A stretch of 64,000 bases of DNA from positions 61,901 through 125,900 of IMG/VR virus record IMGVR_UViG_3300021255_000062; one strand, written 5' to 3'. The notes beneath the pieces were generated by a model. That model did no database searches and was not told the origin of the DNA. It saw only the letters and a program-made list of their open reading frames with translations. The stretch comes from a virus. Lineage: Duplodnaviria; Caudoviricetes. The position numbers and the translations under genes were made by a program. Of the stretch, positions 29,873 to 46,897 are shown piece by piece. Numbering within the stretch: the stretch's first letter is position 1; every line of letters starts with the position of its first letter.

Positions 29873-30259
29873 TTTCGTGGATATTATGTTCAATTTTTTA
29901 TTTCGTGGATATTATGTTCCAGGCATCGAACATTTGTTCGGGTCAAAACGGGCCACTTCCCATAAGCATGGGCCCACTACCAATATTTTACAATTCAAGC
30001 GAGCGAAAATAAAAACTATTCCTCTTACTGGAAAATTTTTACAATTGCTCACACCGAAAAATTTCAATTTTTATTTTTCCAATTTTTTACAGTGGAAAAA
30101 TTTTTTTCGAAAAAATTTCATTTACATATTTTTACAGTGGTAAAATTTGACAGGGGAGATTTTCCTAAAATAAAGGTACTACTAGATTTTAAGACTACCA
30201 TTTTTAAAAAGTGGTACAGTATCAAAATGATACTGGGGGATAGAGAAGAAGCAAGGATT

Positions 30260-30760
30260 TTAAGTCCTTGCCTCGAACCATTTTTCAATGGCTTCTCTTT
30301 GTACGTTTGTCGGTTTCGGTCCTCTGATAACCTTTCGGCTTTTTTCGTATCTTGCGAATCTGTAAAGGAATTGATTGAACTCGTCGGCGTTCATGTTGTA
30401 GATTATCAATTCTTCTTCTTCCTTCCAACCGAAGTCGAAGTTTGTGCTTTCTACTTCTTTCCAGTAGGTTTCAAGTATTGCTTCGAAGGTGTTGCCTTTA
30501 ATCGGTGCTAATGTGAATTCCCAACTTTTACAACTTGTGTGTGTTTCTTCAATGTCGCTTCCCTCGTTGTATTTTCCGTTTCCGTCCTTGTGGGTGTCGT
30601 ACCCTTTAACGAATTTATCTGCTATCTCGAAGAAGTCGCCTGCGTTGCCTCTTTTGTATTCGTTTAGAAGAGTGTCAAACCATTCGTATTTGCTCCCTCT
30701 TCTAGTGTTATCAAACTTGTAGTCAAGTCCTCTTAAGTTATAAACTGTCTTTGTTGCCAT
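30260..30760 (-). CDS. Hypothetical protein, possible PD-(D/E)xK fold
   Basis: Start MATKTV with GGAGAGGAGG SD; GNAGDFFE...GSDI..TSCK pattern. Confidence 0.55.
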   Translation of the reverse strand: MATKTVYNLRGLDYKFDNTRRGSKYEWFDTLLNEYKRGNAGDFFEIADKFVKGYDTHKDGNGKYNEGSDIEETHTSCKSWEFTLAPIKGNTFEAILETYWKEVESTNFDFGWKEEEELIIYNMNADEFNQFLYRFARYEKSRKVIRGPKPTNVQREAIEKWFEART

Positions 30761-31066
30761 TCTGTTGGCCTCCTCTCCTCTGTTCTTGAGTCTATTATAA
30801 GGCATAAACCGGCAGATTAGAAGGCACTTTATTGCTATCAATAGGTAAATACTTGTCACGTTTCAATGGATGATATGACAAGATAGTATCAGTTGCAGTC
30901 GGCGGATCCTTCGGTAGATACTTTATTACTTTAGTGTAGTGAAGTGTCCAGGCAGGTCCAGGATAGTAGCGTTTACTTTAGTGGTTTAAAGTATTAAAGT
31001 ACTGTGTACTTTAATACTTTAAAGTGTTGAAGTGGTATACGTAAAAAAAAGAATCCTTGCGGATTC

Positions 31067-31225
31067 TTATTTATAAAGAAGTTCTTTTGTCTGATAAAGA
31101 TTGTCAGTGAAAATGTGACCGTAAACATATCTTGTGTATGCCATGTTAGTAACGTCTTTCTTTCTTCCCCTTGCTAACTCTTTTCCGTCCTTGTCTGTTA
31201 ATACCCATACTCTCCAGTTTTTCAT
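31067..31225 (-). CDS. Small early protein (52 aa)
   Basis: MKNWRVWV..., AAGGAG SD, terminator hairpin at the stop. Confidence 0.6.
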   Translation of the reverse strand: MKNWRVWVLTDKDGKELARGRKKDVTNMAYTRYVYGHIFTDNLYQTKELLYK

Positions 31226-31544
31226 TTTGTTTTCTCCTTTCGTTTGATGCTTTCTTTAACTGTCTATATATTATCATATATTGAAATATTCGTACAGATA
31301 TTTTTTTGTTATTTCAGAGAAAATTCAGGTAAATAATTGTCAATTTATTTAGGTTATGAAAGTACTTTCCCACTTGCAAATGACAACATTCTACCCGCGC
31401 GGGCGGCCGGATTCGGTGTGGACGGATTTGGTGTAGACGGATTCTAATTGTAAATGATAGAATGAATCGGTATAGTTCGGCGGTCCTGCTGCCGCCGATG
31501 AATTGAATTATTAAGAGGCAGATAATCTGTTTTGTCTTTTAATC

Positions 31545-31860
31545 AGTTAGTTATAACTAATCTATTTTGAGTTTATAAAACTAAAACTAATTTAATTAAT
31601 TTAAATTGAACAAAACTAATTTAAATTAATTGGATTAATTTTAGATTAGATACTGGTATTTAAGTTAGTTGAAACTAATCAACTAATTAGATTGATTGCA
31701 TCTTATTCAAGTTAGTTGAAACTAACCAACTAATTAAGTTAGTTGTAATTAACCAATTAATTAAGTTAGTTGCAACTAACCAACTAACTCTAATTGGTTG
31801 GTTAGTTGCAACTAACCAATTAGCACTGACTAACCGAGTTAGTTGCAACTAACCAACTAT
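31545..31860. repeat. Cluster of GTTAGTTG(A/C)AACTAACCAACT repeats beside an AT-rich tract
   Basis: About 7 near-identical copies; internal palindrome GTTAG-N6-CTAAC. Confidence 0.85.
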
Positions 31861-31883
31861 TATAGGACAAATAAAAGAGAGGA

Positions 31884-32129
31884 TTATAAATCCTCTCCCA
31901 TGTAGTCCTCGTAGCAAAGCGAGCAAATATACTCGCCTTCTTCAAAGTCGCAAGTCCAAGCTTCTAAGTCGAAGTAAGTAACCATTCTGCCACAATCTGA
32001 GCATTTGAAGACTCTCGCTTTATCAGATTCAAGAATCTTACGCAACTCTTTACATCTGTCTTTTCTTCCTGCCTTGTATTCTGCTTCCCATTCGTTTGCT
32101 ATTGCCATTACTTCATTGATTGTCATCAT
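31884..32129 (-). CDS. Small zinc-finger early protein
   Basis: CSDC...CSLC; own promoter and SD. Confidence 0.65.
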   Translation of the reverse strand: MMTINEVMAIANEWEAEYKAGRKDRCKELRKILESDKARVFKCSDCGRMVTYFDLEAWTCDFEEGEYICSLCYEDYMGEDL

Positions 32130-32332
32130 TTTGTTTTCTCCTTTTCTTTTGTGTTTTTGTTTGCCTTCCTTAATTGCCTATATCTTATCACATACCGGCC
32201 TACTTGTCAATAGATTTTGAAAATAAAGTTGCACAAAAGATTAGATTTGTTTTTGTGCAATCTGCTGATCTCTGGCCGGCCTGCGGGTAAGTGAATTACT
32301 TGTCAACCATCAACAAATAAAAAACTGGAATC

Positions 32333-32428
32333 TTAGGATTCCAGTTCTTCTAACTCGATACCGAGCAGTTCTGCGATGTCTTCAAGTGTTGCGCCAAAAT
32401 CAAGAGCCTCTTCAATTGTGTAATTCAT
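32333..32428 (-). CDS. Small acidic early peptide (31 aa)
   Basis: MNYTIEEALDFGATLEDIAELLGIELEELES; AAGGAGG SD, own promoter and terminator. Confidence 0.6.
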   Translation of the reverse strand: MNYTIEEALDFGATLEDIAELLGIELEELES

Positions 32429-32510
32429 TTTTATTCCTCCTTTTGTGTTGCCTTCCTTAACTGTCTATATCTTATCATATTTCGGCTTATTTGTCAACAA
32501 CTTTTTGAGG

Positions 32511-32654
32511 TCAACGGCGAAGATTTTCATCTTCGCCGTTGACCTTTATGTATTCTCTTGAATACTCGTGTTCGTGATCGAACCGGACTACCACGTGGTA
32601 ATCATTCTCTTTAACAACAGTGCCCCAACCATATCTTGCATCGTATACTCTCAT
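32511..32654 (-). CDS. Small early protein (47 aa)
   Basis: MRVYDARYGWGTVV..; SD, promoter and terminal hairpin. Confidence 0.6.
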   Translation of the reverse strand: MRVYDARYGWGTVVKENDYHVVVRFDHEHEYSREYIKVNGEDENLRR

Positions 32655-32873
32655 GTTTTTGTCTCCTTTCTTTTGATAGTTTTATTATAGCAGACAATGG
32701 GTATTTTGTCAATACCTTTTTTAATTTTTTAAAAAAAATTTTTCAATGGCGGCCGGAAAAAAATCAGACCGAAGGCGACGGAACCCCTTCGGCCCTAGAT
32801 GTTAAGGACGTTTCTATACCTCCTTAACTCTGTATTAAGTATAACATGTTTAGGCTAGTTTGTCAAGAACCTT

Positions 32874-33020
32874 TTAAATTAATTTTCTTAATTCCTTAAG
32901 TTCCCTTTCGATTTCGAATAACTCTCTTCTGTCTTTTTCTCTCCAGTGGTCAATCATGTGGATTAAAAATTCTTTATCTTCTAACTCTTTAATTCTTTTT
33001 AAAATTTCTTCTCTTGTCAT
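32874..33020 (-). CDS. Small early protein (48 aa)
   Basis: MTREEILKRIKELED..; AAAGGAG SD, promoter. Confidence 0.6.
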   Translation of the reverse strand: MTREEILKRIKELEDKEFLIHMIDHWREKDRRELFEIERELKELRKLI

Positions 33021-33166
33021 TGTTTTTATCTCCTTTCTTTGTTTCTATCTAAATTATAATATATATTTTTAAATTTGTCAAGTCTTTTTAAAAAAATTTT
33101 TTGAATTTTTTCTATTTCGATCCTGCAAAATTAGACGGCCGGCCAACGAAAAAAGTATCAGATGAA

Positions 33167-33469
33167 TTAATTCATCTGATACCCACTGTAAGTAATTTCT
33201 AAAATTACGTCATCTGTGATATTTTCAGTTCCACAAGTTCCCATTAAGCAACAAAGTAAATCACCTTTTACGTTATCTTCACAACCGTAAAACTGCCATT
33301 CATAACCTACTGCATCAACGCAAGTAACAAGGTCTTTATCATAGTCTAAGTCAACAACTTCCATACACCGCATATAAGTTTCGGGCATCTTTGTTTTTGC
33401 TGAGGTGTGGATTGTGGGAACGAGGGCTAAAACAACTAAACTAAATACTAATACTTTTAAAATCTTCAT
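33167..33469 (-). CDS. Small secreted/membrane early protein
   Basis: Signal-peptide-like N-terminus; SD and promoter. Confidence 0.65.
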   Translation of the reverse strand: MKILKVLVFSLVVLALVPTIHTSAKTKMPETYMRCMEVVDLDYDKDLVTCVDAVGYEWQFYGCEDNVKGDLLCCLMGTCGTENITDDVILEITYSGYQMN

Positions 33470-33625
33470 TTTTTGTATCTCCTTTCTTTATCTATATGTA
33501 TTATATCACATATAAGAGAAATGTCAATAGTTTTTTTAAAAAAAATAAAAGTTAGTTATGTCCAATCTTTTGGCCGGCCGACTTGAAAAAGTCTTGCGAC
33601 TTTTACAAGTACTCAGCATGATTAA

Positions 33626-33811
33626 TTAAGCATTTCTTAAAACTTTAAGTGAAAAGCCTAATTTTAAAACAGAAAGAACTTCATAGACTTGACTATTGTA
33701 AATATTAGTCTCATTAAAAAAGAAATGGATTCTTTTAAAAAGAAAGCCTTTAAAACCATATTCCCACCAAATTTTCCCAGTTTCAGTATTTAAAACTTTT
33801 ATTTTATACAT
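33626..33811 (-). CDS. Small early protein
   Basis: SD and promoter. Confidence 0.6.
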   Translation of the reverse strand: MYKIKVLNTETGKIWWEYGFKGFLFKRIHFFFNETNIYNSQVYEVLSVLKLGFSLKVLRNA

Positions 33812-33956
33812 CTTATTTACTTCCTTTCTTTTATGTTGTGTTGTCTTTCCTTAACTGTCTTTATTATACACTATGTTTGTCTTTTTGTCAATACTTTTTT
33901 GAAATTTTTTAAATTTTGCCGATGGCGGCCGGCCCGCAACAAAAAAAGATGGACTT

Positions 33957-34103
33957 TTATAAGTCCATCAATCCTTTATATAAGTCTTTAATCATTCCAT
34001 CTGTGAAGTGTTTATCTTCCATTACGTTTGCAAAGTCAATTGTGAAAGAATGTTCAAAACCCCATTTTCTAATAATATTTGTAAGCATCTCTTCTCTTGT
34101 CAT
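33957..34103 (-). CDS. Small early protein (48 aa)
   Basis: MTREEMLTNIIRKWGFEH..; leader nearly identical to the 33020 gene. Confidence 0.6.
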   Translation of the reverse strand: MTREEMLTNIIRKWGFEHSFTIDFANVMEDKHFTDGMIKDLYKGLMDL

Positions 34104-34259
34104 TGTTTTTATCTCCTTTCTTATTTTCTGACTTAATTATATCAAACAATCTTACTTTAGTCAATAGACAAAATACACAAAATCATTTGTGCAATTTGCC
34201 GAAACCAGGATCCGGCCGGCCAACAAAAAAAAGAGTCCTGAAAGGACTCTTTTAATTAT

Positions 34260-34442
34260 TTATTTTAAGCTTTTAGTTATGGCCTTAACCATAACCAGTA
34301 CAAGATAAATACCAACTGCGATTTTCCAAGTAAAATCAAAACCGAAAGCCCAGCAGATTCCATATACAAGGCCTGAAGTAATTCCAAAACCGAATGCGAT
34401 TGCTAACAGAATAACTAATGTAGTTGCGATTACTTTTTTCAT
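34260..34442 (-). CDS. Small two-TM membrane protein
   Basis: Two hydrophobic helices; SD, promoter, terminator. Confidence 0.65.
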   Translation of the reverse strand: MKKVIATTLVILLAIAFGFGITSGLVYGICWAFGFDFTWKIAVGIYLVLVMVKAITKSLK

Positions 34443-34726
34443 TTCTTTATCTCCTTTTCTTTTTTGAAGTGCTTTCCTTTAACTGTCTATATAATATCAT
34501 AAACCGGTTTATCTGTCAATAGTTTTTAAATAAAAAGTTGCACAAAAGTATAAAAGATTTTTGTGCAACCTGACGATCCGTCCTGGCCGGCCCGCGCCCT
34601 GGTTAGGTTGGTCCAGGCGGGACTAAACCAGGATAACTTTAGGAAACTAAAGTATTAAAGTACAAAGTACTTTAACACTTTAAAGTGTTAAATTGAGGGA
34701 TCCGGGCCGGCCGGGCGACTCAGCCG

Positions 34727-34856
34727 CGGGTTAGTTGAAACTAACCAACTATCGGGTTAGTTGAAACTAACCAACTATCGGGTTAGTTGAAACTAACCAA
34801 CTATCGGGTTAGTTGAAACTAACCAACTATCGGGTTAGTTGAAACTAACCAACTAT
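34727..34856. repeat. 5 x 26-bp perfect tandem repeat CGGGTTAGTTGAAACTAACCAACTAT
   Basis: Units start at 34727, 34753, 34779, 34805 and 34831; no spacers. Confidence 0.97.
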
Positions 34857-35112
34857 ATTGGATCCGCACACTTTAATGCTTTAAAGTAGCAACTTTGTTA
34901 AGAATTTAACATTCGAACTGACGTTCACCGAACTGACGTTCACCTGGTCGGCCCGCCACTTTAGGGGTTTAAAGTATAGAAGTAACCGGATCCGCCGCTA
35001 CCAGGAGTAATTTTTTGTTGTCGAAAAAATTACCCATGACAAAAATTTACCCTTTACAAATCCGGACTTTTCCTGTATAATCTTAAGTAGATAAGGAAAG
35101 GAGATAAAGACC

Positions 35113-35574
35113 ATGAAAAACATCACATTATTCAACGAAATGATAAGAGTTTACGATAAAAAAGCCTACACCCACAATTACATCTTTGGCATCCGCTACA
35201 AGGGCAACATCTACATGATAAAGACCACAAGCCAGCTTTTGGCGCTGGTCTTAAAGCTTGATAAAGCTAGCCGTGGTAAGGGCTACAGCTTAAGATTCAA
35301 GCCGAACAACAAAGTTAGGGAACTGCTCTTAGCTGAGGGCGCTGAGCTGATTTGCTCCGCTGAGATGTTCGACGAACTGGTTAAAAACAGCAAGTACAAC
35401 AAAGGCGAAATCTTTGAGAAGCTTGTGACTGAGTGGTTCGGTCAGAAGTGGGAAAAGGACAACGTACCATTCACAGAGGATGGCGACCTCACGGTAAACG
35501 GAACAGCCTACCAAATCAAATACGAACAGGCAACCTTCCTCACGGAAGCCCAAATGCTCAGGCTGAGGGGCTAA
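35113..35574 (+). CDS. Hypothetical protein, possible PD-(D/E)xK fold
   Basis: KYNKGEIFEK...DGDL...YQIK pattern; strong SD. Confidence 0.6.
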   Translation: MKNITLFNEMIRVYDKKAYTHNYIFGIRYKGNIYMIKTTSQLLALVLKLDKASRGKGYSLRFKPNNKVRELLLAEGAELICSAEMFDELVKNSKYNKGEIFEKLVTEWFGQKWEKDNVPFTEDGDLTVNGTAYQIKYEQATFLTEAQMLRLRG

Positions 35575-35945
35575 GCCCCTGGGCCTGGACCGCCTGGCGG
35601 ATCCACTGTCCTAATATTAAAGCTAAGCCATGAGCTAAGGTTGCGCTGCTGGTCGGAGCTTCACAGCCTGGCGCTACAATTGCTAAAAGCTATTCGCTCG
35701 GCCGGCCCGCTGCCACTGAGCGCTACATCAGCCGCGGGTCCTGCTGCCGCTGCCATCAACAAAATCAAATCACATTTTTAAACAACAAAAAATTTGACAA
35801 ATCTAAAAAAATTTGATATAATAAATTTAGAAAGAAAAAAGAAATTCAAACAAAAACTAAAATTCAAAAACAAAATAAAAAAGTCTTGACAATAAAAGAA
35901 GTACATGCTATAATATAATTACTAAAAGAAAGTGAGGGCGAATCA

Positions 35946-36305
35946 ATGGCAGTTAGTAGAAAAGTAGAGAGAGAAATTTTAAGAACTGAATACCTTGATA
36001 AACTTATTGAATACTTTAGAAATGACGAGGATGTTTTAAGAACCAAATCTAACGAAATTGCTTTTCCTGTTGTTGGTTGTGAAGGAAATGAAGATTTCAT
36101 CGTTATTACTGTAAAAGTTCCCACAGGCGCAAATAAAGGTACTGAGCCTTACGATGGTTATGAACTCGCGCAGGAATACATCATGAAAACAGAAGAAAAG
36201 AGACGCAAAGCAAAGGAAAAAGAAGACAAAAAGAAAAAGAAGATTGCAAGGGATGAGGAAATCCGCAAGAAAAAGAAAGCAATCGCAGATAAGGGCGCAG
36301 AGTAG
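35946..36305 (+). CDS. Early protein family A, copy 1
   Basis: Paralog of 44008 (shared KSNEIA.PVVGCE, KVPTGANKGTEPYDGY). Confidence 0.75.
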   Translation: MAVSRKVEREILRTEYLDKLIEYFRNDEDVLRTKSNEIAFPVVGCEGNEDFIVITVKVPTGANKGTEPYDGYELAQEYIMKTEEKRRKAKEKEDKKKKKIARDEEIRKKKKAIADKGAE

Positions 36306-36434
36306 CGCCCTTTTGCGTCGGCCGGCGCCACCTTCCATCATAAAAATAAAATAAATTTTTTAAAAATAAGGGTTGACAAATAATAAAAAATAATATATAA
36401 TATAGATAAGAAAAGAAAGAAAGGAAAAAAAGAA

Positions 36435-36878
36435 ATGACAAAAGCAATTTACTTTGATATGGATGGAACGATTGCAGACCTTTACGGAGTTGATGGATGG
36501 TTAGATATGTTGATTAATGAAGATGCAACACCATACGCACAGGCAACACCACTTTTAAGACTTTGCACTCTTGCAAGGGTTTTAAACAATCTTCAGAAGA
36601 AAGGTTGGCACATTGGAGTTGTTAGTTGGTTAGCAAAAAATGGCACAGACCACTATAACAAAGATGTTACAGAAACAAAAAAGGAGTGGTTAAAAAATCA
36701 CATGCCAAGTGTTAAATGGAATGAAATTAAAATTGTAGAATACGGTACACCAAAATCAACAGTTGTAAATCTTAAAGGTGGAATCCTTTTTGATGATGAA
36801 GAAAAGAATAGAACTGAATGGGATGGGATTGCATACGATGTAAATGACATTATCGGCACTTTGAAGGCGGTTGCATAG
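36435..36878 (+). CDS. HAD-superfamily 5'(3')-nucleotidase-like
   Basis: YFDMDGT, VVS, K and LFDD motifs. Confidence 0.75.
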   Translation: MTKAIYFDMDGTIADLYGVDGWLDMLINEDATPYAQATPLLRLCTLARVLNNLQKKGWHIGVVSWLAKNGTDHYNKDVTETKKEWLKNHMPSVKWNEIKIVEYGTPKSTVVNLKGGILFDDEEKNRTEWDGIAYDVNDIIGTLKAVA

Positions 36879-36980
36879 GTCGTCTTCTGCGGCCGGTCGA
36901 TAAAAATCTTGTAAAAACTATTGACAAATAAATTATTATATGATATTATATAGAAAAGAAAAGAAAGGTAGGAAACAAAC

Positions 36981-37154
36981 TTGAAAATTGGTAAAGTTGT
37001 TCTTGGAATTTTTTACGTAGTAATTGCTATTATACTTTTATGGATATTATTTTCCTATATTGAGGTAGTATCACATAATTTGGATGGTTTCTACAATTAT
37101 TCTAGTTGGAATTGTTTCGTTATTTTTATTAATGGATTTTCCCCAATTCATTGA
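36981..37154 (+). CDS. Small membrane protein
   Basis: TTG start after SD; hydrophobic N-terminus. Confidence 0.5.
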   Translation: MKIGKVVLGIFYVVIAIILLWILFSYIEVVSHNLDGFYNYSSWNCFVIFINGFSPIH

Positions 37155-37676
37155 AAAAATCTCACATTTTAAATGTGGGATTTTTTCTCTCTAGAGATCT
37201 CCCAAAATTACTACAGTTTTATTCTTCCTAAAATTATTCTGCGCGGGTACTGGCCGGCCGCCGAATTGTCGGAATATTCCGAAAATATTTTTTTGAAAAT
37301 TTTTTCAAAAAAAGTATTGACATTCTCCCAAAATTATGATATATTATAATTGTCAAGGGGAGAGAAAGGATAACCCAAGGCAAGCCTTGATGGGGAATGG
37401 GTTCGAATCCCATGTGTGGACGCACACAAACCACGAAACTTTTTAAAAAAAGTTGTGATAAACCCCTTGACATTTTTCAGAAAATCTGATATAATAATTA
37501 TAGAAAAAGAAAAGAGGTCAAAAACTTCTCAAAAACTTTTTCAAAAAAAATCCTAAAAAGGTCTTGACAGATTCCAGAAAATCTGATATAATAAAGACAA
37601 CAAAGAAACAGGGGAGACAGGAACTCCCAAAATTAATCAAAAAGGGTTGCGACCAAACGCAAGAAAGAGGTATACT

Positions 37677-38021
37677 ATGACAAAGAGAGAATTCCTTAAC
37701 GCAGTTATTGAGACAGTAGCAGTTGCAGAACTTCAGGATTTTGCTAGGGCAGAAATCGAGAAGATGGACGCACGGAACGCAAAACGTGCAGGCACTCTTT
37801 CCAAAAAGGCAAAAGAAAACGAACCCATTAAGGAAAAAATTGTTGCTTTCCTTACTGGTAAAGAGGTTCCGCAGATTGCAAGTGAGATTGCAACGGCACT
37901 TGAAATCTCTACCCAGAAAACTTCTGCACTGTGTAGGCAGTTGGTAGAAGTTGGCACTCTCAATGTCGAGGATGTCAAGGTCAAAGGTAAAGGTAAGGTC
38001 AAGGGTTATACCCTTGTCTAA
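37677..38021 (+). CDS. Winged-HTH DNA-binding protein, family B copy 1
   Basis: ASEIA..LEISTQKTSALCRQL...KVKGKGKVKGYTL. Confidence 0.7.
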   Translation: MTKREFLNAVIETVAVAELQDFARAEIEKMDARNAKRAGTLSKKAKENEPIKEKIVAFLTGKEVPQIASEIATALEISTQKTSALCRQLVEVGTLNVEDVKVKGKGKVKGYTLV

Positions 38022-38232
38022 CCCTCTTCTTTCCCTCCTTTTCCTCCTTAGGGGACAGACAAAAAGTCTGTCCCTTTTTTATTTCTTCCTAACCGAACAT
38101 ACGTTCGGGCGCGGCCGGCCGATCCCAAAATTTCTCAAATTTTTTTCAAAAAAGTGTTGACAAGATAAGAAAAATATGATATTATATAGACAGTTAAGAA
38201 AGACATTTCAAATAATTAGGAGGTATTACGAA

Positions 38233-38373
38233 ATGAGAAAACTTTTATATGATTGCTATTACGGAAAAATTCTTGTAAAAACTGTCGCAACTCAAAAGAA
38301 GGCGAAGGAATGGAAAGCAACCAATCCTGAAAACTTCTATAAAATTAGATTAGAAAAGATTACGACCCTTTAG
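38233..38373 (+). CDS. Small basic early protein
   Basis: AGGAGG SD, promoter, terminator. Confidence 0.55.
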   Translation: MRKLLYDCYYGKILVKTVATQKKAKEWKATNPENFYKIRLEKITTL

Positions 38374-38636
38374 AACCCAACGGGTTCTATTGGGCCGGCC
38401 CGCCGAGTTGTCAGACTATTCTGAATTTAATTTTAGGGGTTGACACATAGAAAAAAATATGATATATTATAATTACCAAAGGGATAGAGTAACGGTCTCG
38501 GCAGATGTTAACTCACTTCTGAGGACGTGAAAAAATCTCAAAAAAGTTTCAAAAAACTCTTGACAAGCTTTTAAAAATCTGATATAATAAAGACAAGTTA
38601 AGAGAAACACACCACATAAAAAGAAAGGTTAAAAAG

Positions 38637-39011
38637 GTGAAAACTATGACAAGACGTGAAATGTTTGAAGTAATCGTAAACGGTAACATCACTGATGAGG
38701 TTGTAGCAATGGCGCAGAATGAAATCATCAAGATGGATGAGCGCAACGCAAAGCGCAAAAACAGACCTTCTAAAAATGCCCTTGCTAATGAGCCTATTAA
38801 GGCACATATCCTCGAGGTTCTTACTGATGCGCCTATGGTAGCAAGTGAGGTTGCTGAAAAGGTGGGTATCTCCACTCAGAAGGCTTCCGCTCTTCTCCGT
38901 CAGATTGACGGCTTAGTTGTAACTGAGGTTAAAGTCAAGGGTAAGGGTAAAGTCAAGGGTTATGCCCTTGGCGAAGGCCCTCAGTACCTTGACAGAGAGG
39001 TTACTGTTTAA
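38637..39011 (+). CDS. Winged-HTH DNA-binding protein, family B copy 2
   Basis: ASEVAEKVGISTQKASALLRQ...KVKGKGKVKGY. Confidence 0.7.
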   Translation: MKTMTRREMFEVIVNGNITDEVVAMAQNEIIKMDERNAKRKNRPSKNALANEPIKAHILEVLTDAPMVASEVAEKVGISTQKASALLRQIDGLVVTEVKVKGKGKVKGYALGEGPQYLDREVTV

Positions 39012-39184
39012 TCTCTCTTCCTTGGCTCTCTTGGGTTGACAAAACGTCAACCCTTTTATTTTATTATCTTATCCGAACATACGTTCGGGCGGGCCGGCCG
39101 CGAACGAAAATTTTCAAAAAAAATACTTGACAACAAGTATGTTTTCGGTTATAATAGATATAGAAAAAGAAAGGAGAACATAAA

Positions 39185-39376
39185 ATGACAAACACTAAAC
39201 ATCGTGATATGATTAGAGAAAACTTTATAGTTCTTGCGGAAACTGATAACGCAATTCTTTTTGACGCTTACGGAGAAATCTGTTGCGAAATTAACGGCGC
39301 AGACTTCTCTTGTAGTAGTGTCAAAGAGTTCTACGAAATGGTAGAACTTTTTGGGGATGACTCTTTTGAAGAGTGA
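39185..39376 (+). CDS. Small acidic early protein
   Basis: SD and promoter. Confidence 0.6.
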   Translation: MTNTKHRDMIRENFIVLAETDNAILFDAYGEICCEINGADFSCSSVKEFYEMVELFGDDSFEE

Positions 39377-39488
39377 TCCCCTGGCCGGCCCGCAGACTTT
39401 GTTAAAAAAATAACTTTTAAAAAAGGTGTTGACAAGTCCATAATTGTTTGCTATAATATAGGTACATTAAAGAAAGGAAATAAAACGA

Positions 39489-40127
39489 ATGGAAAAAATT
39501 CTTATTATCGACACAGAAACTACTAACACAATTGATGATGCACTTGTTTACGATGTGGGATATATCGTAGCAGACTATGATGGCAATATCTACCACAAAG
39601 ATAGTTTTGTTAATGCAGATATTTTCTGTGATAAAGAACTTATGGCAAGTGCATACTTCGCAGAAAAAATTCCTCAGTACTGGAAAGAAATTAAAAAAGG
39701 TAAAAGAACTTTAACCTCTTTCAGAAAAATCATGTGGACGTTGCGCCATGTTATGAAGGACTACAACATCAAAAAGGTTTATGCTTATAATTGCAGATTT
39801 GATTATTGTTCTCTTGCCACTACTCAGAGATATTTAACAAAATCTAAATGGAGATACTTCTTTCCTTATGGGACTGAGTTCCATGATATTCTTGCTCTTT
39901 CTCGCCACGTATTGAAAAAGTTAGATACTTATAGAAACTTCTGTAAAGAAAATGAATATGTCACCGCAAGAAACGCAAATAGATATACCGCAGAAATTGT
40001 GGCTCGTTACTTTTTCGATGAATCTTTTGTTGAAGAACATACAGCGCTTGCTGATTGTGAGATTGAATATAGAATCTTACTTGAATGTTTAAAGATGGAT
40101 TCAGACTATGAGACGAAAATGTGGTAA
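39489..40127 (+). CDS. DEDDh 3'-5' exonuclease, copy 1
   Basis: IIDTET, AYNCRFD, EHTALAD. Confidence 0.85.
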   Translation: MEKILIIDTETTNTIDDALVYDVGYIVADYDGNIYHKDSFVNADIFCDKELMASAYFAEKIPQYWKEIKKGKRTLTSFRKIMWTLRHVMKDYNIKKVYAYNCRFDYCSLATTQRYLTKSKWRYFFPYGTEFHDILALSRHVLKKLDTYRNFCKENEYVTARNANRYTAEIVARYFFDESFVEEHTALADCEIEYRILLECLKMDSDYETKMW

Positions 40128-40237
40128 GGGGTGACTCTTACCACGTGCGCCCGGCCGAAAAAATTTTTCAAAAAAGTGTTGACATTGGTGTAATTGTATG
40201 ATATAGTATATATAGAAAAGGAAAGGAGATAGAAAAA

Positions 40238-40432
40238 ATGAAATGTCATATTTGTAATAACGAAACTACTTGGGAAGAATCTTTTGGGAGAGAATCTTTT
40301 ATAGTTTGCCCATCTTGCCACAGGGAATTAACAAATAGAATTAAGGTTTTAAGAGTATGTGGATACACCCCAGAATCTTCCGCTTTAGATATTATCATTA
40401 CAATAGGAATCATGAAAGAAGAAAGGAAATAA
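40238..40432 (+). CDS. Small zinc-finger protein
   Basis: CHIC...CPSC. Confidence 0.6.
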   Translation: MKCHICNNETTWEESFGRESFIVCPSCHRELTNRIKVLRVCGYTPESSALDIIITIGIMKEERK

Positions 40433-40437
40433 AAGAA

Positions 40438-40677
40438 ATGAATAAATTTTTCGAAAACTTAAACTATATCGTACTTATACTTTTAATCGTTGGTCAGTGT
40501 ACCATCGGCGCCAATTGGGTAGTCGGTCAGTGTGTTTATCTTACAGCAAATTTGATTAGCGTTTCTCGTTGTTGGATTCTCAAACGTCCCGCTGCCGATA
40601 AAATTAAAGATTGTGCATGCCTTGCAATCACTCTTGGACTTCTCGGTATTAGGCTTCTCGGCGGACTTCCTTTTTAG
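40438..40677 (+). CDS. Small membrane protein
   Basis: Hydrophobic helices. Confidence 0.6.
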   Translation: MNKFFENLNYIVLILLIVGQCTIGANWVVGQCVYLTANLISVSRCWILKRPAADKIKDCACLAITLGLLGIRLLGGLPF

Positions 40678-40794
40678 GGTCTGCCGTTGGGCCGGCCCAC
40701 GTTAGAGACAACTAACCAACTTTTTTAAAAAAATACTTGACAAATAAGAAATTTTCTGATATAATTATTTTAGAAAAAGAAAAGGAGAAACAAA

Positions 40795-40971
40795 ATGACT
40801 AAAAAGAAAATTGATAAAGCAAATTATGTAAATGTTTCCAAAAAGAAAAGAAAAGAAATTGCAAAGGCGAATCGTGGAGACACCTTTGAGGGCTATCGCC
40901 CCGTATATTTCAGAGACAAAACCAAATACAACAGACAAAAAAATAAACAGATTAAAGATTGGGAGGATTAA
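40795..40971 (+). CDS. Small basic protein (58 aa)
   Basis: MTKKKIDKANY..; AAGGAG SD. Confidence 0.6.
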   Translation: MTKKKIDKANYVNVSKKKRKEIAKANRGDTFEGYRPVYFRDKTKYNRQKNKQIKDWED

Positions 40972-40972
40972 A

Positions 40973-41179
40973 ATGTTAGAAAAATTACAGAAATTTATTG
41001 AAGATTGTTACAACCACGCAGAAAAAAATGCAAAGACTTTCCGAGATATTGAAAACTATCGCGCGCAAGCATACGGCGCATTAACGTTCTGCATTGATAA
41101 TGACCTTGTAAAATATGAGGAAGTTGAAGACTATTGGGATACTATGTGGGAAAAATTCTTTCAGTTAAATAACAAATAA
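40973..41179 (+). CDS. Small early protein
   Basis: MLEKLQ..; GGAGG SD. Confidence 0.6.
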   Translation: MLEKLQKFIEDCYNHAEKNAKTFRDIENYRAQAYGALTFCIDNDLVKYEEVEDYWDTMWEKFFQLNNK

Positions 41180-41605
41180 AGATGGAAAACCTTTCCATCT
41201 TTGGCCGGCCGCGAGCAAATTGCACAAAACAGATCCTATTTCTTTGTGTAATATTCCCACTTGTTTTTTCTGTTCAATGTGATATAATTATAAGTGTCAA
41301 GGGGATGGAGTAGTAAAGAACAAAGGAAGTTACTCCCCCTTAGAAAATTAAAAAATTTTCTTAAAACCCCTTGACAAACTTGAAACTCTATGTTATAATA
41401 ACTTCAGAAGGTGAGGGAAGGAAGCAAGGGCAGACCCCAAGGCGCAAGATGCCGCAGTAAGTCTTCCTGATAAAGTCCCACCACCGCAAGCCGAAGTCCT
41501 ACTTTGCGGTATATAAATGTGAGGCAACATACGGGGATGCTCTGGAACCCCTAGGCTGGTAGGATGGAGCAATTTTATAATATAAAAAAGTGAGGATAAG
41601 ATAAT

Positions 41606-41839
41606 ATGTGTGATATTAATTTTCAGAATTATTCCGTTGAAGAATTAATTGCAATGAAAGCAACTATTGAAGCGACAATCGGAGACAAGAAACGAAAAGA
41701 ATATGATATTATGGTTAACAAGGTACTTAGTATTTTAGAAGTTATGGCAGAAAAATTTCCTTGCGAATGGGCCATAGATAATGAAGACCATGTGCTTGAT
41801 TGGGGTGATATTTATAAAGAAATTCGTGATTCTCATTAA
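41606..41839 (+). CDS. Small early protein
   Basis: SD-preceded ORF. Confidence 0.6.
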   Translation: MCDINFQNYSVEELIAMKATIEATIGDKKRKEYDIMVNKVLSILEVMAEKFPCEWAIDNEDHVLDWGDIYKEIRDSH

Positions 41840-41914
41840 TATTTTTTAAAAAATACTTGACTTTTTCTTTTCTCTGTGTTATAATTAATTTACCAAAAGA
41901 AAGGAGAACAAGAT

Positions 41915-42238
41915 ATGAAATTCGAACCAAAGATTAGTGGTACTAAAGTTACAGATTTTGAGATTAGACCCTTATTTAGTTCTCAGTTTATTTCATTACA
42001 AGATGTAATGGAAAAAGATTTATCTCAGCGCACGATGGATTGGATTTTGGATAATATCCGTTTTCATCGTGGCGACAGAACGGAAGAAAATAAAGGTAAA
42101 TGTATTTGGTGGGCAATATTAGATTTTGATACTGACTTAAAATTGGCGGTATTAGAAAATCACCCCGAATATGAAAAAGAGTTTATTGAATATTTCGGTG
42201 AAAACTGGATGAATCATTATATCCGTTTTAATCATTAA
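41915..42238 (+). CDS. Small early protein
   Basis: SD, promoter, terminator. Confidence 0.65.
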   Translation: MKFEPKISGTKVTDFEIRPLFSSQFISLQDVMEKDLSQRTMDWILDNIRFHRGDRTEENKGKCIWWAILDFDTDLKLAVLENHPEYEKEFIEYFGENWMNHYIRFNH

Positions 42239-42313
42239 AAAGTTGGGGTGGACAAAATAGTCCACCCTGGGCCGGCCAATCGGGGCAACCCTCTCAGTTG
42301 CCCCATTTTTATT

Positions 42314-42523
42314 TTATTGTACCAATCTACCGAACAACTGACACAAGTCACGCCATTCCTCATCATCGTTTGCAAAAAATTCATAATCATCTTCTTGTGG
42401 TTCATCAGGAATACCGAGGGCAAACCACACGTCATAAATTTCTTCGTCGCCAAGATTAATAATATAGTCGTTCATCTGTTTCGCAAACTCAATTCTCATT
42501 TTGATTAATTCTTCTCTTGTCAT
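42314..42523 (-). CDS. Small acidic early protein (inverted unit)
   Basis: MTREELIK..; promoter and terminator. Confidence 0.6.
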   Translation of the reverse strand: MTREELIKMRIEFAKQMNDYIINLGDEEIYDVWFALGIPDEPQEDDYEFFANDDEEWRDLCQLFGRLVQ

Positions 42524-42585
42524 GATTGTTTCCCCCTTTTCTATTTATATTATATCCAATTTTTGATTTTTTGTCAAGTACTTTT

Positions 42586-42753
42586 TTAAAAGAAAATCGA
42601 ATGACGACTTTCTCTTTCAATTTTTAAAGAATATCTTATCAATTCAGAAGGACTGAACTCTTCCACGTGTTTGTGGATTTCGTCCAGACTATTAGCAGTT
42701 GCAACTAAATATCTGTAACCATCTCTTCTATCAATCATATACAAAAACCACAT
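42586..42753 (-). CDS. Small early protein (inverted unit)
   Basis: MWFLYMIDRRDGY..; AAGGAG SD, promoter. Confidence 0.55.
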   Translation of the reverse strand: MWFLYMIDRRDGYRYLVATANSLDEIHKHVEEFSPSELIRYSLKIERESRHSIFF

Positions 42754-42975
42754 TTTTTCCAACTCCTTTCCTTTGTTATATATAATATACCATATCCTTT
42801 CCCGAATGTCAACCCCTTTTTTGAAAAAATCTTTTTATTGAACATGTATTCGGCGGGCCGGCCGCCGAGTTAGTTGAAACTAACCAACTAAAAAAAAGAA
42901 AAAATAAGAAAAAAGTGTTGACAAGTAATACAATCTATGCTATACTATATACAGTTCAAGAGAGGAGAAAATAAA

Positions 42976-43641
42976 ATGAAAATCGACAAGAGAAAAAATT
43001 ACTACATCGTTTTTGATACTGAAACCGCAAACGGACTTGAAGACCCTATTATGTATGATTTGGGTTTTGCAGTTATCGACAAAAAGGGAAATGTATACGA
43101 AACCCATTCTTATATAATTCGAGAGGTATTTTTTGGGATGATTGACTTAATGCAGTCAGCATATTACGCAGAAAAAATCCCAGAATATAAAAGACAAATT
43201 GCAAAAGGGGAAAGAAAAGTTGTTTCCCTTTTTGAAGCAAAAAGATTTTTTGCAGATACTTGTAGAAAATACAATGTAAAGATTGCTATCGCGCACAATG
43301 CACGTTTTGACTATCGGTCAACCTCAACCACTCAAAGATACATAACAAAATCAAAATATCGTTTCTTCCTTCCTTATGGTGTTGAACTGTGGGATACGAT
43401 GAAAATGGCAAACGATACTATCTGTAAACAGAAATCTTATAAAAAATGGTGCCATGAAAATGGATACATCACAAAAAACAATCAAGTTCGTAAAACCGCA
43501 GAGGTTCTTTACAGATACATCAGCGGAAAATATGACTTTGTAGAAAGTCATACAGGACTTGAAGATGTGTTAATAGAAAAGGAAATCTTTGTTCATTGTT
43601 TGCGACAGCATAAACCCATGAGAAAGAAATGTTTCGCCTAG
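42976..43641 (+). CDS. DEDDh 3'-5' exonuclease, copy 2
   Basis: VFDTET, AHNARFD, SHTGLED; paralog of 39489. Confidence 0.85.
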   Translation: MKIDKRKNYYIVFDTETANGLEDPIMYDLGFAVIDKKGNVYETHSYIIREVFFGMIDLMQSAYYAEKIPEYKRQIAKGERKVVSLFEAKRFFADTCRKYNVKIAIAHNARFDYRSTSTTQRYITKSKYRFFLPYGVELWDTMKMANDTICKQKSYKKWCHENGYITKNNQVRKTAEVLYRYISGKYDFVESHTGLEDVLIEKEIFVHCLRQHKPMRKKCFA

Positions 43642-43774
43642 GGTCTCCCCTAGGCGTGGGCCGGCGCGCCGCATAATTATGCAAAAGAAATTAATAAAAA
43701 TTTTTTATAAAAAACTATTGACAAATCACTTCCCATATGATATCATTAGTACAGATAGAAAAGAGGTGAACAAA

Positions 43775-43960
43775 ATGTTAGATAAAGCAATCCTCCATGG
43801 CAAAGAACATAGGAAGCCATACTATGGCGCCAAAGCCATTGACTGCTCTTGTCGTAATCATGGGTCTTGCCCTCATTGCGAAGCAAATAGATTATATTCA
43901 ACAAAGAAAAGATTAGAAAAAACTAATTATTCTTTAAAGAACTACTTGACAAACTTTTGA
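43775..43960 (+). CDS. Small basic Cys/His-rich protein
   Basis: KEHRKPY..AKAID.SCRNHGSCPHC. Confidence 0.6.
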   Translation: MLDKAILHGKEHRKPYYGAKAIDCSCRNHGSCPHCEANRLYSTKKRLEKTNYSLKNYLTNF

Positions 43961-44007
43961 TTGTGTGCTATACTTAATACAGATAAAAAAGAAAGGAGAT
44001 AAAATCT

Positions 44008-44364
44008 ATGGCAGTTTCAAGAAAAGTTGAACGTGAAATTATCCGCAACGAGTTCCTTACAATGGTCAGTGACTTCCTTAATCTTAAAGGCGAAGAGGTT
44101 CTTCGTGTGAAGTCCAATGAAATCGCAATCCCTGTTGTTGGATGCGAAGATAACGAGGATTTTCTTGTTATCACCTTTAAAGTCCCAACTGGAGCAAACA
44201 AGGGAACAGAACCCTATGACGGTTACTCCATGGCAGAGGACTACGAATTGAAACTTAAGGAGAAAGCCGAAAAGGCGAAAGCCAATGCCGAAAAAAAGGC
44301 AAAGAAAATGGCGAAAGATGCGGAAATCCGCAGAAAGAAAAAAGAGATTGCAGAAAAGAGGTGA
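44008..44364 (+). CDS. Early protein family A, copy 2
   Basis: Paralog of 35946. Confidence 0.75.
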   Translation: MAVSRKVEREIIRNEFLTMVSDFLNLKGEEVLRVKSNEIAIPVVGCEDNEDFLVITFKVPTGANKGTEPYDGYSMAEDYELKLKEKAEKAKANAEKKAKKMAKDAEIRRKKKEIAEKR

Positions 44365-44825
44365 TTCACCCGAAGGGGTGACCCTTCGGGGTCGCCCTGG
44401 GCGGCCGGCCCGCCGTCAAATTGCACAAAAACGGATCAGAATTTTGTGCAATATTACATATTGACTTTTAAAGAAAATTTTAGTATAATCTAATTACAAG
44501 GTAAGGGAAGTCAAAGAAGTCAAAACAAAAAAACCTTAAAAAGTTTAAAAAAGTTCTTGACAAAACAAAAACCTTGTGATATAATAAAGGTACAAAAGAA
44601 AGGGGATAATAAAAATGACAAGGTTTAGGCTTTAAGCGGTTACCACATCGCAAACAGAAAAGAGTGGCAGGGCAAAAAAGGTGGTAGAAAGTGACGTCAC
44701 CTACCACCGCCCGCAGTATAGGAAATAAAAATAATTTAAAAAAGTTCTTGACAAATAATACAATCCATGTTATAATCTTAAATGTAATCAAAAGAAATCA
44801 CTTAAAGAAAGGAAAGGTACTAACT

Positions 44826-45164
44826 ATGACAAACAGAGAATTTTTCGAAGCAATCGTTAACGGAACTATCAATGACGAAATCAAGGCTCATGCACATGAA
44901 GCAATCGAGAAACTCGATGCTCGTAATGCAAGACGAGCAAATACCCCATCTAAAACCGCAATTGCCAATGCTCCTATCATCGAAGCAATCAAGGCAATTC
45001 TCACGACTGAACCGCAGACTGCGGGCATGGTTGCAGAGAAGGTTGAAATCTCTGTACAGAAGGCAAGCGCACTTCTGCGTCAGATTGTCGCCAATGGTGA
45101 CGCACTCGTAACTGAAGTTAAAGTTCCCAAGAAGGGAAAACAGAAGGGTTACTACCTTGGGTAG
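44826..45164 (+). CDS. Winged-HTH DNA-binding protein, family B copy 3
   Basis: VAEKVEISVQKASALLRQ...KVPKKGKQKGY. Confidence 0.7.
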   Translation: MTNREFFEAIVNGTINDEIKAHAHEAIEKLDARNARRANTPSKTAIANAPIIEAIKAILTTEPQTAGMVAEKVEISVQKASALLRQIVANGDALVTEVKVPKKGKQKGYYLG

Positions 45165-45351
45165 TACCCTCAAGGGTTCGGTGGACACCCTAAGTCCACC
45201 TTTTGTTTTGTTCTTTTAACCGAACAAGTGTTCGGGCGGGCCGGCCAGGTCCAGGCCGGATCCACCAGGCAATCCCCAAAAATTTTTCAAAAATGTCTTG
45301 ACAAAAAATCAATTATCCCTTATAATAGTATATAGAAAGGGGGTCATGCAT

Positions 45352-45522
45352 ATGACAAAAGACAAGTTCATCAGAATCCACCTCAAGAGAGGTTACACCG
45401 TTCAAGACTTCGGTAGAATGGTAATTCTCTCCCTCAACAACTACACAGCAATTCACCACTTCAAAGACAACGGTGAGTATGATTACGACACCGACGCCTT
45501 TTGGAAACTGGAGCGCAATTAG
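45352..45522 (+). CDS. Small early protein
   Basis: SD, promoter, terminator. Confidence 0.55.
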   Translation: MTKDKFIRIHLKRGYTVQDFGRMVILSLNNYTAIHHFKDNGEYDYDTDAFWKLERN

Positions 45523-45642
45523 CGTTCCAGTTTTTTTATTACCACTAATGATCGCCGGCGGATCCATCAGTCTGGCCGGCCTATTTGCGCCGGCCTGGCA
45601 GTTTTAACCAGGGAAAGTTGGCCGGCCAGACCCATCCGGCCC

Positions 45643-45832
45643 CGAACATATGTTCTGGTTGGTCAACATTTCGCGAAACATGGTTTTAACGAATAGTTGC
45701 GGCGCGCATACCATATCTAGTACCGAACATACATTCACCCACAACATATTGTGGAATTTTTTCATCTCAACTATTCGCGAAACATATTTTTAGCGAAGTC
45801 TTACCGAACATACGTTCCCGAACATACGTTCG
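45643..45832. promoter_or_regulatory. Cluster of Gram-positive LexA (Cheo) boxes and tandem NrdR boxes
   Basis: CGAAC-N4-GTTC at 45643, 45805 and 45819 (variant at 45724); ATACCATATCTAGTAC at 45708 and CCACAACATATTGTGG at 45739, 31 bp apart. Confidence 0.7.
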
Positions 45833-45875
45833 ATTCCGCCTGCGGCAGCGGTCGTCCATGGATTACCATCGTGTG

Positions 45876-46160
45876 GGAGCTGCGTCCATCCAGGAGCTGC
45901 GTTTGGGAGCTGCAATAGGAGCTGCGTTTGGCCGGCCAGCAGCTGCATTAAAAACACGTCCAGGAGCTGCGTCGACGCCGGGCCGGGAGCTGCGTATGGG
46001 AGCTGCGCCGGCTGCTGTCAAATTTTCCCATGGGAGCTGCAAAACTCATTGGAGCTGCATCACAGCCGCTGCCAGCAGCTGCAAAACGTTCAAGAGCTGC
46101 GATAGGAGCTGCAGCTGCTGCCAAAAATCACACTTCTCTATAGTAAAATGCGGCAGCTGC
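45876..46160 (+). repeat. Co-oriented GGAGCTGC/AGCTGC repeats
   Basis: About 10 GGAGCTGC plus about 4 variants, all GGAGCTGC copies on the same strand. Confidence 0.85.
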
Positions 46161-46525
46161 CGAAAATTTGACTTAAAAAGTCAAATTTTTTTATAATTTT
46201 TCTTAAAAATTTGACAAAGATTGTCAAATTTTCTTATATTTTCTCCTGAAAATTTGACTTTAAAAGTCAAATTTCCTGGCCGCAAAATTTTCGCTCGTGA
46301 AAATTTGAAAAATTTTCAAAATTTCAGTATAATATATATAGAAAGTGAGGGAAGGAGAAAAAAACTACGGCTCTCCTCCCTCGGCTGGAAATAGCTTCTG
46401 AAAATTTGACAACTTTCAGAAAATCTGATATAATATATATAGAAAGTGAGAGAGAAGTAACCTCTCATTTGATAAATTCAATGTAACTGGCGCCCACTGC
46501 CGAGTGTGGGAGAAAGAAGGACCGT

Positions 46526-46879
46526 ATGACAAAGTTTGAAGCTTACCAGGCAGTTATCAATGGACAGGTTAACGAGGATGTTGTTGAGAAGTTCCGCGAG
46601 ATGCTCGAAACCCACGAAGCTGAAGCTGAGAAACGTCGGAACCGCGCAGCTGAGAAAAGGGCGGAGAAACTGGCCGCTGAGAAAGTTCTGGAGGACGGAA
46701 TTATGGAAGTCCTCGGAGAAGAGCCGATGACCGCATCTGATATTGCAGAAGCAGTCGAGGGAATCAACACTCCGCAGAAAGCTACGGTAGTCGTTAAAAG
46801 ACTCGTGGCAGCAGGACTTGCAACAGTGCAGGACGTTAAGGGTAAGAAAGGCAAGGTTAAGGGCTACACCTTAGCCTAG
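46526..46879 (+). CDS. Winged-HTH DNA-binding protein, family B copy 4
   Basis: TASDIAEAVEGINTPQKA...DVKGKKGKVKGYTL. Confidence 0.7.
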   Translation: MTKFEAYQAVINGQVNEDVVEKFREMLETHEAEAEKRRNRAAEKRAEKLAAEKVLEDGIMEVLGEEPMTASDIAEAVEGINTPQKATVVVKRLVAAGLATVQDVKGKKGKVKGYTLA

Positions 46880-46897
46880 GCCTTAACTGGTCAAAAC

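Follow-up and report, generated by a model that had tools for sequence, protein, structure and literature searches.

Operators that are repeated many times between phage genes are known from the stoperators of cluster A mycobacteriophages, which are numerous repressor sites in short intergenic gaps that are thought to block elongating polymerase; these sites lack symmetry, point along transcription and, in a lysogen, are bound by the repressor that the phage itself encodes. The PeSL of T4-type phages are promoter/stem-loop cassettes with neither a repressor-type dyad nor a GC-only 8-mer. Sites for host regulators are also found in phages, with CtrA sites clustered in virulent phages of Alphaproteobacteria ("lytic deferment", PMC9437464) and Spo0A boxes present in two phages classed as lytic, phi29 and Nf (PMC2731898). 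In both cases the sites lie in promoters or origins, and binding of the regulator and a change in transcription or replication have been demonstrated (PMC9437464, PMC2731898). Among temperate phages of Firmicutes, the Cheo-type boxes of GIL01 are bound by host LexA (PMC4551915, PMC6182141) and are located in a promoter (PMC4551915), and the SOS boxes listed for SPbeta carry 3–5 mismatches and are found upstream of individual genes (PMC8270828). The subject of the present analysis is an array of LexA-type (Cheo) boxes in the early region of a phage known from IMG/VR virus record IMGVR_UViG_3300021255_000062. The stretch analysed, referred to throughout as the window, comprises 64,000 nucleotides (bases 61901–125900 of the 125.9-kb record), corresponding to the right half of the genome. 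The record ends in direct terminal repeats, and the genome is of the large siphophage type, from cattle gut.

Nine exact copies of CGAAC-N4-GTTC are located in the window, at 29927, 34914, 34929, 38094, 39074, 45221, 45643, 45805, and 45819, with degenerate variants at 42839 and 45724. Between 29.8 and 46 kb the GAAC-N4-GTTC core was counted nine times, against 0.18 expected and a maximum of two in dinucleotide shuffles, and the remaining 110 kb of the genome contains only one further core site (17584). The stricter pattern CGAACRNRYGTTCG, at ≤1 mismatch, gave seven sites where 0.0 were expected. The enrichment of LexA/Cheo boxes in the early region is far beyond chance, and the preliminary description, which had named these nine sites as LexA boxes, was borne out on this point by the counts, by the match to the consensus and by their retention in related phages; all of the sequences that it listed were found in place. 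The boxes outside the right-hand hub (below), and the GC block with which several of them are associated, are as follows (no strand assigned):

29927–29940, Cheo/LexA-type box CGAACATTTGTTCG, between convergent genes in a gap that has no promoter
32274–45937, span of all 22 genome copies of the GC block GGCCGGCC, at cassette boundaries (0.045 expected)
34914–34942, tandem pair of 15-bp units CGAACTGACGTTCAC, next to five 26-bp iterons within the central divergent control region
38094–38107, box CGAACATACGTTCG, 18 nt past the winged-helix gene 1 terminator, with GGCCGGCC 5 nt further on
39074–39087, box CGAACATACGTTCG, past the winged-helix gene 2 terminator, with GGCCGGCC 4 nt further on
42839–42852, degenerate box TGAACATGTATTCG, between divergent promoters and 3 nt before GGCCGGCC
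45221–45234, box CGAACAAGTGTTCG, past the winged-helix gene 3 terminator, with GGCCGGCC 4 nt further on

The LexA box of Firmicutes is a 14-bp dyad, CGAAC-N4-GTTCG, with an A/T-rich R-N-R-Y centre, and the nine exact sites conform to this description. A profile of the phage family, derived from 145–152 distinct sites, reads C-G-A-A-C-R-T-A-Y-G-T-T-C-G. The sites were picked by their arms, so the conservation of the arms in this profile is circular; the centre, which was left unselected, holds ~0.8 bit per position, and no information is found outside the 14-mer. At every position, including the R-T-A-Y centre, the profile is identical to the LexA consensus of B. subtilis, CGAACATATGTTCG (PMC8270828). 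The boxes share with host-regulator sites of the CtrA and Spo0A type a skewed distribution, high scores and recurrence in relatives. Judged from their sequence, the CGAAC-N4-GTTCG sites are real protein-binding operators with the specificity of LexA, and the binder itself is the part that we infer. They constitute a single LexA-type array among many phage-specific operators, and this array is real, conserved, and unusual.

The phage encodes its own sigma factor, which is found at 23 IMG/VR loci with 32–99% identity. In the clade at roughly 64–73% sigma identity the boxes are conserved and more numerous. G001, a complete genome of 135 kb, has ~15 boxes, all but one of those found lying in 11 kb; the incomplete relatives G002 and G003 have ~15 and ~12 boxes, all within stretches of ~10 and ~14 kb, respectively; and another complete relative of 136.6 kb has ten within 6 kb. 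Overall, related phages carry 10–17 LexA-type boxes in the same region, which is the outcome of the conservation check that the preliminary description had proposed. A second clade, with genomes of 112–118 kb, has 5 boxes in ~430 bp, consisting of an abutting pair and two or three more. The cultured but distant phages Geobacillus E3, Enterococcus H1, Phass-1, and Alicyclobacillus KKP_3916 have 1–2 boxes per genome, which is the background level. Four or five Cheo-type boxes were also seen in ~150 bp of non-coding DNA in an unrelated viral contig of 62% GC (IMGVR_UViG_3300049734_000614), and dense LexA-box clusters therefore exist in other phage lineages too.

The early (host-takeover) region extends from 32 to 46.5 kb of the window and contains small, mostly ORFan genes together with several non-coding transcripts, arranged in a leftward arm (30–34.5 kb) and a rightward arm (35–46.5 kb). 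Thirty-seven promoters in 32–46.5 kb have ≤1 mismatch to the sigma-A consensus TTGACA-17-TATAAT, most of them with a TG extension and an A/T-rich UP element. Within this region the box is part of a boundary module, whose order along transcription is a terminator hairpin with its T-tract, 18–21 nt, the box, 3–5 nt, GGCCGGCC, sometimes a second palindrome, the UP element, and the -35. The full module is seen at 38094, 39074, and 45221. The degenerate box at 42839 has kept the 3-nt gap to GGCCGGCC but is flanked by divergent promoters, with no preceding terminator. Among the boxes of the phage family with a promoter nearby, 80 of 96 box centres are positioned at -80 to -160 of a start site and none at -50 to -1. 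An arrangement in which the box overlaps or closely follows a promoter, with LexA repressing initiation, was therefore found in 0 of the 96, and ordinary repression of initiation by LexA is excluded for these promoters. The distance from the edge of the box to the T-run has its mode at 9–13 nt (40 of the 60 sites with a detectable terminator), and oriented profiles place a GC-rich block on the promoter side of the box and the terminator T-tract on the other. The preliminary description was correct in placing the operators outside the -35 and -10 elements; its statement that most of them abut GGCCGGCC applies to about half of those listed.

The sequence of the GC block is not conserved, relatives having the cores GCCCGGGC, CCGGGCGC, or CCGCGCGC at the same spot, and no instance of the exact composite of box and GGCCGGCC was found in IMG/VR. 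About 11 half-decayed copies of GGCCGGCC (GGCCGG or CCGGCC) occupy equivalent places. A C5 methyltransferase was considered as a possible reader of GGCCGGCC, and none was found in the genome. A hairpin formed by the flanks of GGCCGGCC was rejected on inspection, the flanks not being complementary, and a synthetic or engineered origin of the FseI and BamHI sites was rejected on the ground that the architecture recurs, with other GC cores, in relatives sampled independently. Two further 8-mers, GCGGCCGC (10 copies) and GGCGCGCC (8), are several-fold over-represented even among GC-only 8-mers (for example at window 4806, 11646, and 19394; genome 4009–60077) and by eye are mostly located in apparent coding sequence outside the early region.

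The remaining boxes belong to two hubs, the elements of which are (no strand assigned):

34727–34856, five tandem 26-bp iterons with GTTAGTTGAAACTAAC, in the central hub
45540–45860, gene-free hub with boxes at 45643, 45724 (degenerate) and 45805/45819 (abutting), an NrdR-like palindrome at 45739–45754, two TTCGCGAAAC, and two GGCCGGCC
45876–46160, GGAGCTGC repeat array (10 exact copies and some variants) that follows immediately on the tandem boxes, an order kept in relatives

The central hub (34.6–35.0 kb) combines two GGCCGGCC, CTTTAAAG palindromes, the five iterons, a Rex-type site and the two tandem boxes, and the right-hand hub (45.54–46.2 kb) also includes three AAATTTGAC...GTCAAATTT palindromes overlapping promoters. 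Hub order is conserved in relatives as boxes, a Rex-like palindrome, GTTAG-type palindromes, the abutting box pair, and the GGAGCTGC array. The abutting pair ahead of the repeat array is kept in two phage clades, with TAAGCTGGAAC replacing GGAGCTGC as the array unit after the pair in the second, and in G001 and G003 a consensus promoter is directed into the hub. The region further contains no fewer than eight repeat or palindrome families without a match to any recognised host operator, including TTGCACAAAA...TTTTGTGCAA, GTTAGTTGAAACTAAC, ~30 TACGTATACGT units, and GGAAAATTTTT repeats. The TACGTATACGT-type units are arranged around an A/T-rich stretch and are followed by the GGAAAATTTTT set (window 46890–47700 and 47790–47990); these repeats may be an origin or a partition-like array. 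The promoter operator of the relative G004, TCGTACGT-N3-ACGTACGA, has a similar look.

The reading that we tentatively favour is that host LexA binds the boxes and acts in cis at cassette boundaries and hubs. Taken as a question of its own, LexA would be the functional ligand with a probability of about one half, and a phage protein with one of about one third or more. LexA is taken as the binder because it is expected to occupy any perfect Cheo box in a Firmicute cell. The box is also unchanged across two clades while the neighbouring repeats change, and domain searches of the phage genome found no LexA homolog. These searches likewise found no tyrosine or serine integrase, S24/LexA-type repressor, LexA_DNA_bind domain, or ParB, although the absence of integrase, S24, and ParB genes does not prove a virulent lifestyle. 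The fixed order of the module, its fixed distance from the terminator and the conserved tandem pair at the hub suggest a local role in cis, and a function at cassette boundaries would explain the fixed order and the tight terminator distance together with the loose promoter distance. A LexA dimer on a box ~10–20 nt beyond the T-tract would be met by the leading edge of a polymerase located on the terminator and could aid termination; such a roadblock or insulator would keep the dense and very strong early cassettes independent of each other, and the tandem pair at the hub entrance would gate transcription into the array. Cleavage of LexA in the SOS response would then change the boxed part of the early programme. 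Both the roadblock and the coupling to SOS are functions that we infer from the geometry.

Several observations weigh against this reading. Every one of the ten phage records searched encodes one to five small winged-helix proteins, which could read the box. In G004 (62% sigma identity) the hub and the terminator-palindrome-promoter layout are kept, but the palindrome is TCGTACGT-N3-ACGTACGA and tandem Cheo boxes are absent; in G005 (32% identity), 19 of the 23 early promoters have TTAGACTA-N3-TAGTCTAA. Such a change of operator from lineage to lineage suggests phage-encoded binders and agrees with them better than with a panel of host operators. In addition, many of the sites share ancestry, their counts and distances not being independent, and no precedent was found in the literature for LexA as a roadblock.

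The alternative that survives best, a serious one though somewhat less probable than LexA acting in cis, is that the box is the operator of a phage protein, most probably a winged-helix paralog that shares or mimics the specificity of LexA. Several phage regulators would then wire the early region, each with its own palindrome, for example for shut-off or insulation of cassettes. The winged-helix proteins belong to family phrog_19455, with >1600 metagenomic homologs, and four are encoded here, each behind 2–4 stacked promoters:

37677–38021, plus strand, winged-helix paralog 1, 114 aa
38646–39011, plus strand, winged-helix paralog 2, 121 aa
44826–45164, plus strand, winged-helix paralog 3, 112 aa, the paralog modelled
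46526–46879, plus strand, winged-helix paralog 4, 117 aa, adjoining the repeat array and with positional orthologs in relatives

A phage-encoded reader is favoured by the palindromes in equivalent slots, which vary by lineage (TTGTTAA-N4-TTAACAA, TTGCACAAAA...TTTTGTGCAA, GTTAGTTGAAACTAAC, TCGTACGT-N3-ACGTACGA, and TTAGACTA-N3-TAGTCTAA) and which in G004 and G005 stand at a fixed 8–9 or 19 nt upstream of the -35, as well as by the prevalence of the winged-helix genes and their stacked promoters, by TCAGAAAATCTGA inside the promoter spacers of two of these genes, and by the model of paralog 3, a confident winged-helix fold (predicted local distance difference test, pLDDT, 87). The 14-mer nevertheless equals the LexA consensus at all positions, and host LexA would compete for it. 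Moreover, Cheo boxes and three or more other repeat types are present in the second clade, which has only one winged-helix gene. The recognition helices of the paralogs in G004, which lacks Cheo boxes, are little different from those of box-bearing phages, and across the 22 paralogs compared no feature of these helices clearly tracked the presence or absence of Cheo boxes. A fold search with the model returned only generic MarR/PadR/ROK-type matches and no LexA. A weak sequence match to the winged helix of CodY (E ~0.3) found no confirmation in this search. In the G005 segment examined (G005:40001-60000), the palindrome ends exactly 8 or 19 nt upstream of the -35, where it replaces the UP element and directly follows the previous terminator.

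Improbable, by comparison, is a protein-free sponge, in which perfect LexA operators (with Rex-type ones in sister phages) are multiplied by replication and soak up the host repressor. Replicating DNA would deprive the host of its SOS (and redox) repressor and reprogramme the host regulons, turning on SOS without damage or a phage protein, and the placement of the boxes would merely spare the promoters of the phage. The sites are near-perfect and numerous (9–11 here, as well as those of the relatives), core promoters are never overlapped, the box at 29927 lies in promoter-free DNA, and most of the non-coding DNA is in this region, which would explain the clustering. Titration does not, however, require the fixed order, the tight terminator distance or the hub position of the tandem pair in two clades, and G004 and G005 do without Cheo boxes. 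The LexA pool of a cell is far above the ~10 sites of a single incoming genome, so that any sponge effect would be confined to late infection. No precedent for the titration of LexA by phage DNA was found in the literature.

It is very unlikely that the boxes are only short conserved linkers, used for the shuffling of cassettes by recombination and read by no sequence-specific protein. The cassettes are mosaic between relatives, and contigs in metagenomes join them at shared promoter sequences, which is weak support in view of matching sides of only 20–28 nt; but the boxes, as perfect 14-bp dyads in which the arms are conserved and the centre is semi-variable, bear the signature of a dimeric DNA-binding protein, and the observed joints are in promoters, not in boxes. 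The contigs come from four bovine-gut runs and represent many related, mosaic phages; they yielded neither usable variation at individual sites nor transcript ends. Different cassettes are joined in them inside shared promoter sequences, e.g. 39433 to 41283 and 37323 to 41877 (window 36500–46400), which weakly suggests cassette shuffling between related phages.

The preliminary description had gone further and seen in the early region a panel of operators for five host regulators, LexA, NrdR, CodY, Rex, and ArgR. The sites cited for regulators other than LexA and listed by position are (no strand assigned):

34895–34912, Rex-type palindrome TTGTTAAGAATTTAACAT, 1 mismatch to TTGTTAA-N4-TTAACAA, the only good one in the window
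37264–37287, "CodY-like" site, core TCGGAATATTCCGA, of a phage-specific palindrome family
38406–38429, "CodY-like" site, core TCAGACTATTCTGA, of the TC(A/G)GA-N3-4-TC(C/T)GA family
43671–43682, "ArgR-like" GCATAATTATGC, a single 12-bp palindrome with symmetric mismatches, not enriched

Sites of the TTGTTAA-N4-TTAACAA type match the clostridial Rex consensus (PMC5367854). At ≤2 mismatches the region has four Rex-like sites against 0.55 expected, and three relatives have 15, 9, and 16 against 0.1–0.4 expected. The Rex claim is marginal in the window, the second site cited (39399) having 3 mismatches, but such sites are abundant in relatives. The hubs of relatives also contain Rex-like half-sites with a wider gap, TTGTTAATAA-T-TTATTAACAA. 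NrdR boxes are two 16-bp palindromes (acaCwAtATaTwGtgt) ~31 bp apart and upstream of nrd genes. The tandem boxes claimed at 45708/45739 reduce to a single good palindrome at 45739, with no adjoining nrd gene and no counterpart in the homologous hubs of relatives, 45708 being a poor match (1 match in total against 0.35 expected). For CodY, the pattern AATTTTCWGAAAATT with few mismatches should be enriched beyond A/T composition. At ≤3 mismatches 19 CodY-like matches were counted against 5.7 expected, with no enrichment in relatives, and 12 of the 19 are situated 5–25 nt upstream of a -35, the position of an UP element; the cited pair has 3–4 mismatches, and the claim was not upheld. The TC(A/G)GA-N3-4-TC(C/T)GA family has four members in the genome, all confined to winged-helix cassettes: the cited pair, and two that are situated within promoter spacers, those of winged-helix genes 1 and 4. 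ArgR/AhrC sites are dyads of the TGAAT-W4-ATTCA type, usually paired; three matches were found where 3.5 were expected, the cited site is present in a single copy, and this assignment is not supported.

Of the five regulons, LexA stands, Rex is marginal, and NrdR, CodY, and ArgR have no support against a composition-matched background, which the preliminary description had itself named among the outcomes that would refute it. The rest of the panel is made up of UP elements, of single matches at chance level and of phage-specific palindromes for which phage proteins are the probable readers. A decoy or sensor panel that titrates or senses all five regulators is hardly credible: real LexA-type boxes, abundant Rex-type palindromes in relatives and one good NrdR-like palindrome at 45739 are outweighed by the NrdR, ArgR, and CodY counts, the absence of the NrdR-like palindrome from the homologous hub of relatives, the single good Rex-type site in the window, and the wider-gap half-sites in relatives' hubs, which the fixed spacing of Rex should not accept.

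The phage as a whole encodes a portal and a large terminase (~42% identity to that of Geobacillus virus E3) in addition to the sigma factor, and carries 16 tRNAs and one ROOL RNA. Near-identical DNA is present in gut and bovine-gut metagenomes, and no RNA dataset was listed among the sequencing runs containing the region. Searches of ~35 early open reading frames (ORFs) with Pfam and PHROGs classified nearly all of them as ORFans and found no homologs of LexA, Rex, CodY, or NrdR; megablast of the region against 50,697 phage records gave zero matches, and a search of 185,579 genomes with the sigma factor for a prophage or host gave none, as did a cluster look-up for the names of hosts. The tape measure protein has 3609 aa (window 4079–14908). 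Tails usually scale at ~0.15 nm per tape-measure residue, which would correspond to a tail of roughly half a micrometre. An NT5C-type deoxynucleotidase of the early region and a dUTPase/dCTP-deaminase-like protein (window 36435–36878 and 2012–2920) hint at manipulation of the nucleotide pool, and if the phage DNA is modified the binding of host repressors could be affected. In the stacked-promoter sets at 37346–37440, 38469–38540, and 41290–41350, the first promoter gives an ORF-less transcript starting with ATAATTGTCAAGGGGA or a close variant. This leader recurs in equivalent places of relatives, and such transcripts may be a conserved family of small RNAs or leaders.

If host LexA binds the boxes, a clade of large gut phages without recognisable lysogeny genes would have the DNA-damage repressor of the host wired into its early region where ordinary repression of promoters is impossible. 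The repressor would then probably be put to an unusual use, whether to insulate transcription, to gate an origin or hub, or as a sponge. It would also offer a clean and conserved system in which to test the titration of host regulators by phage DNA. If instead a winged-helix protein reads the box, a phage regulator would share the operator code of SOS and could act on the SOS regulon of the host. Either way, such phages can be found by a simple genomic marker, the 14-bp box.

Among described systems, the phages with CtrA and Spo0A sites are similar in having no recognisable lysogeny genes, a skewed, dense set of high-scoring sites and an early region rich in non-coding DNA, with recurrence in relatives. 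In contrast to those sites, the boxes here lie behind terminators and clear of core promoters, and their regulator would be LexA. With GIL01 and SPbeta the phage shares Cheo-type boxes, and with SPbeta-type phages a distant terminase relationship. It differs in having 9–17 near-perfect boxes, none of them at -50 to -1, and in that no integrase or CI/LexA-like repressor was found. As in the case of stoperators, many copies of one site are scattered between genes and not at promoters, but the sites here are symmetric and match a host repressor. The resemblance to PeSL lies in small early genes, each framed by a repeated promoter-plus-hairpin module, with a content that varies between relatives. 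No description of such an array was found in the literature. Compared with the known LexA-box phages, what differs is a genome without recognisable lysogeny genes, together with the number of the boxes, their perfection and their position, which is close to terminators and away from promoters.

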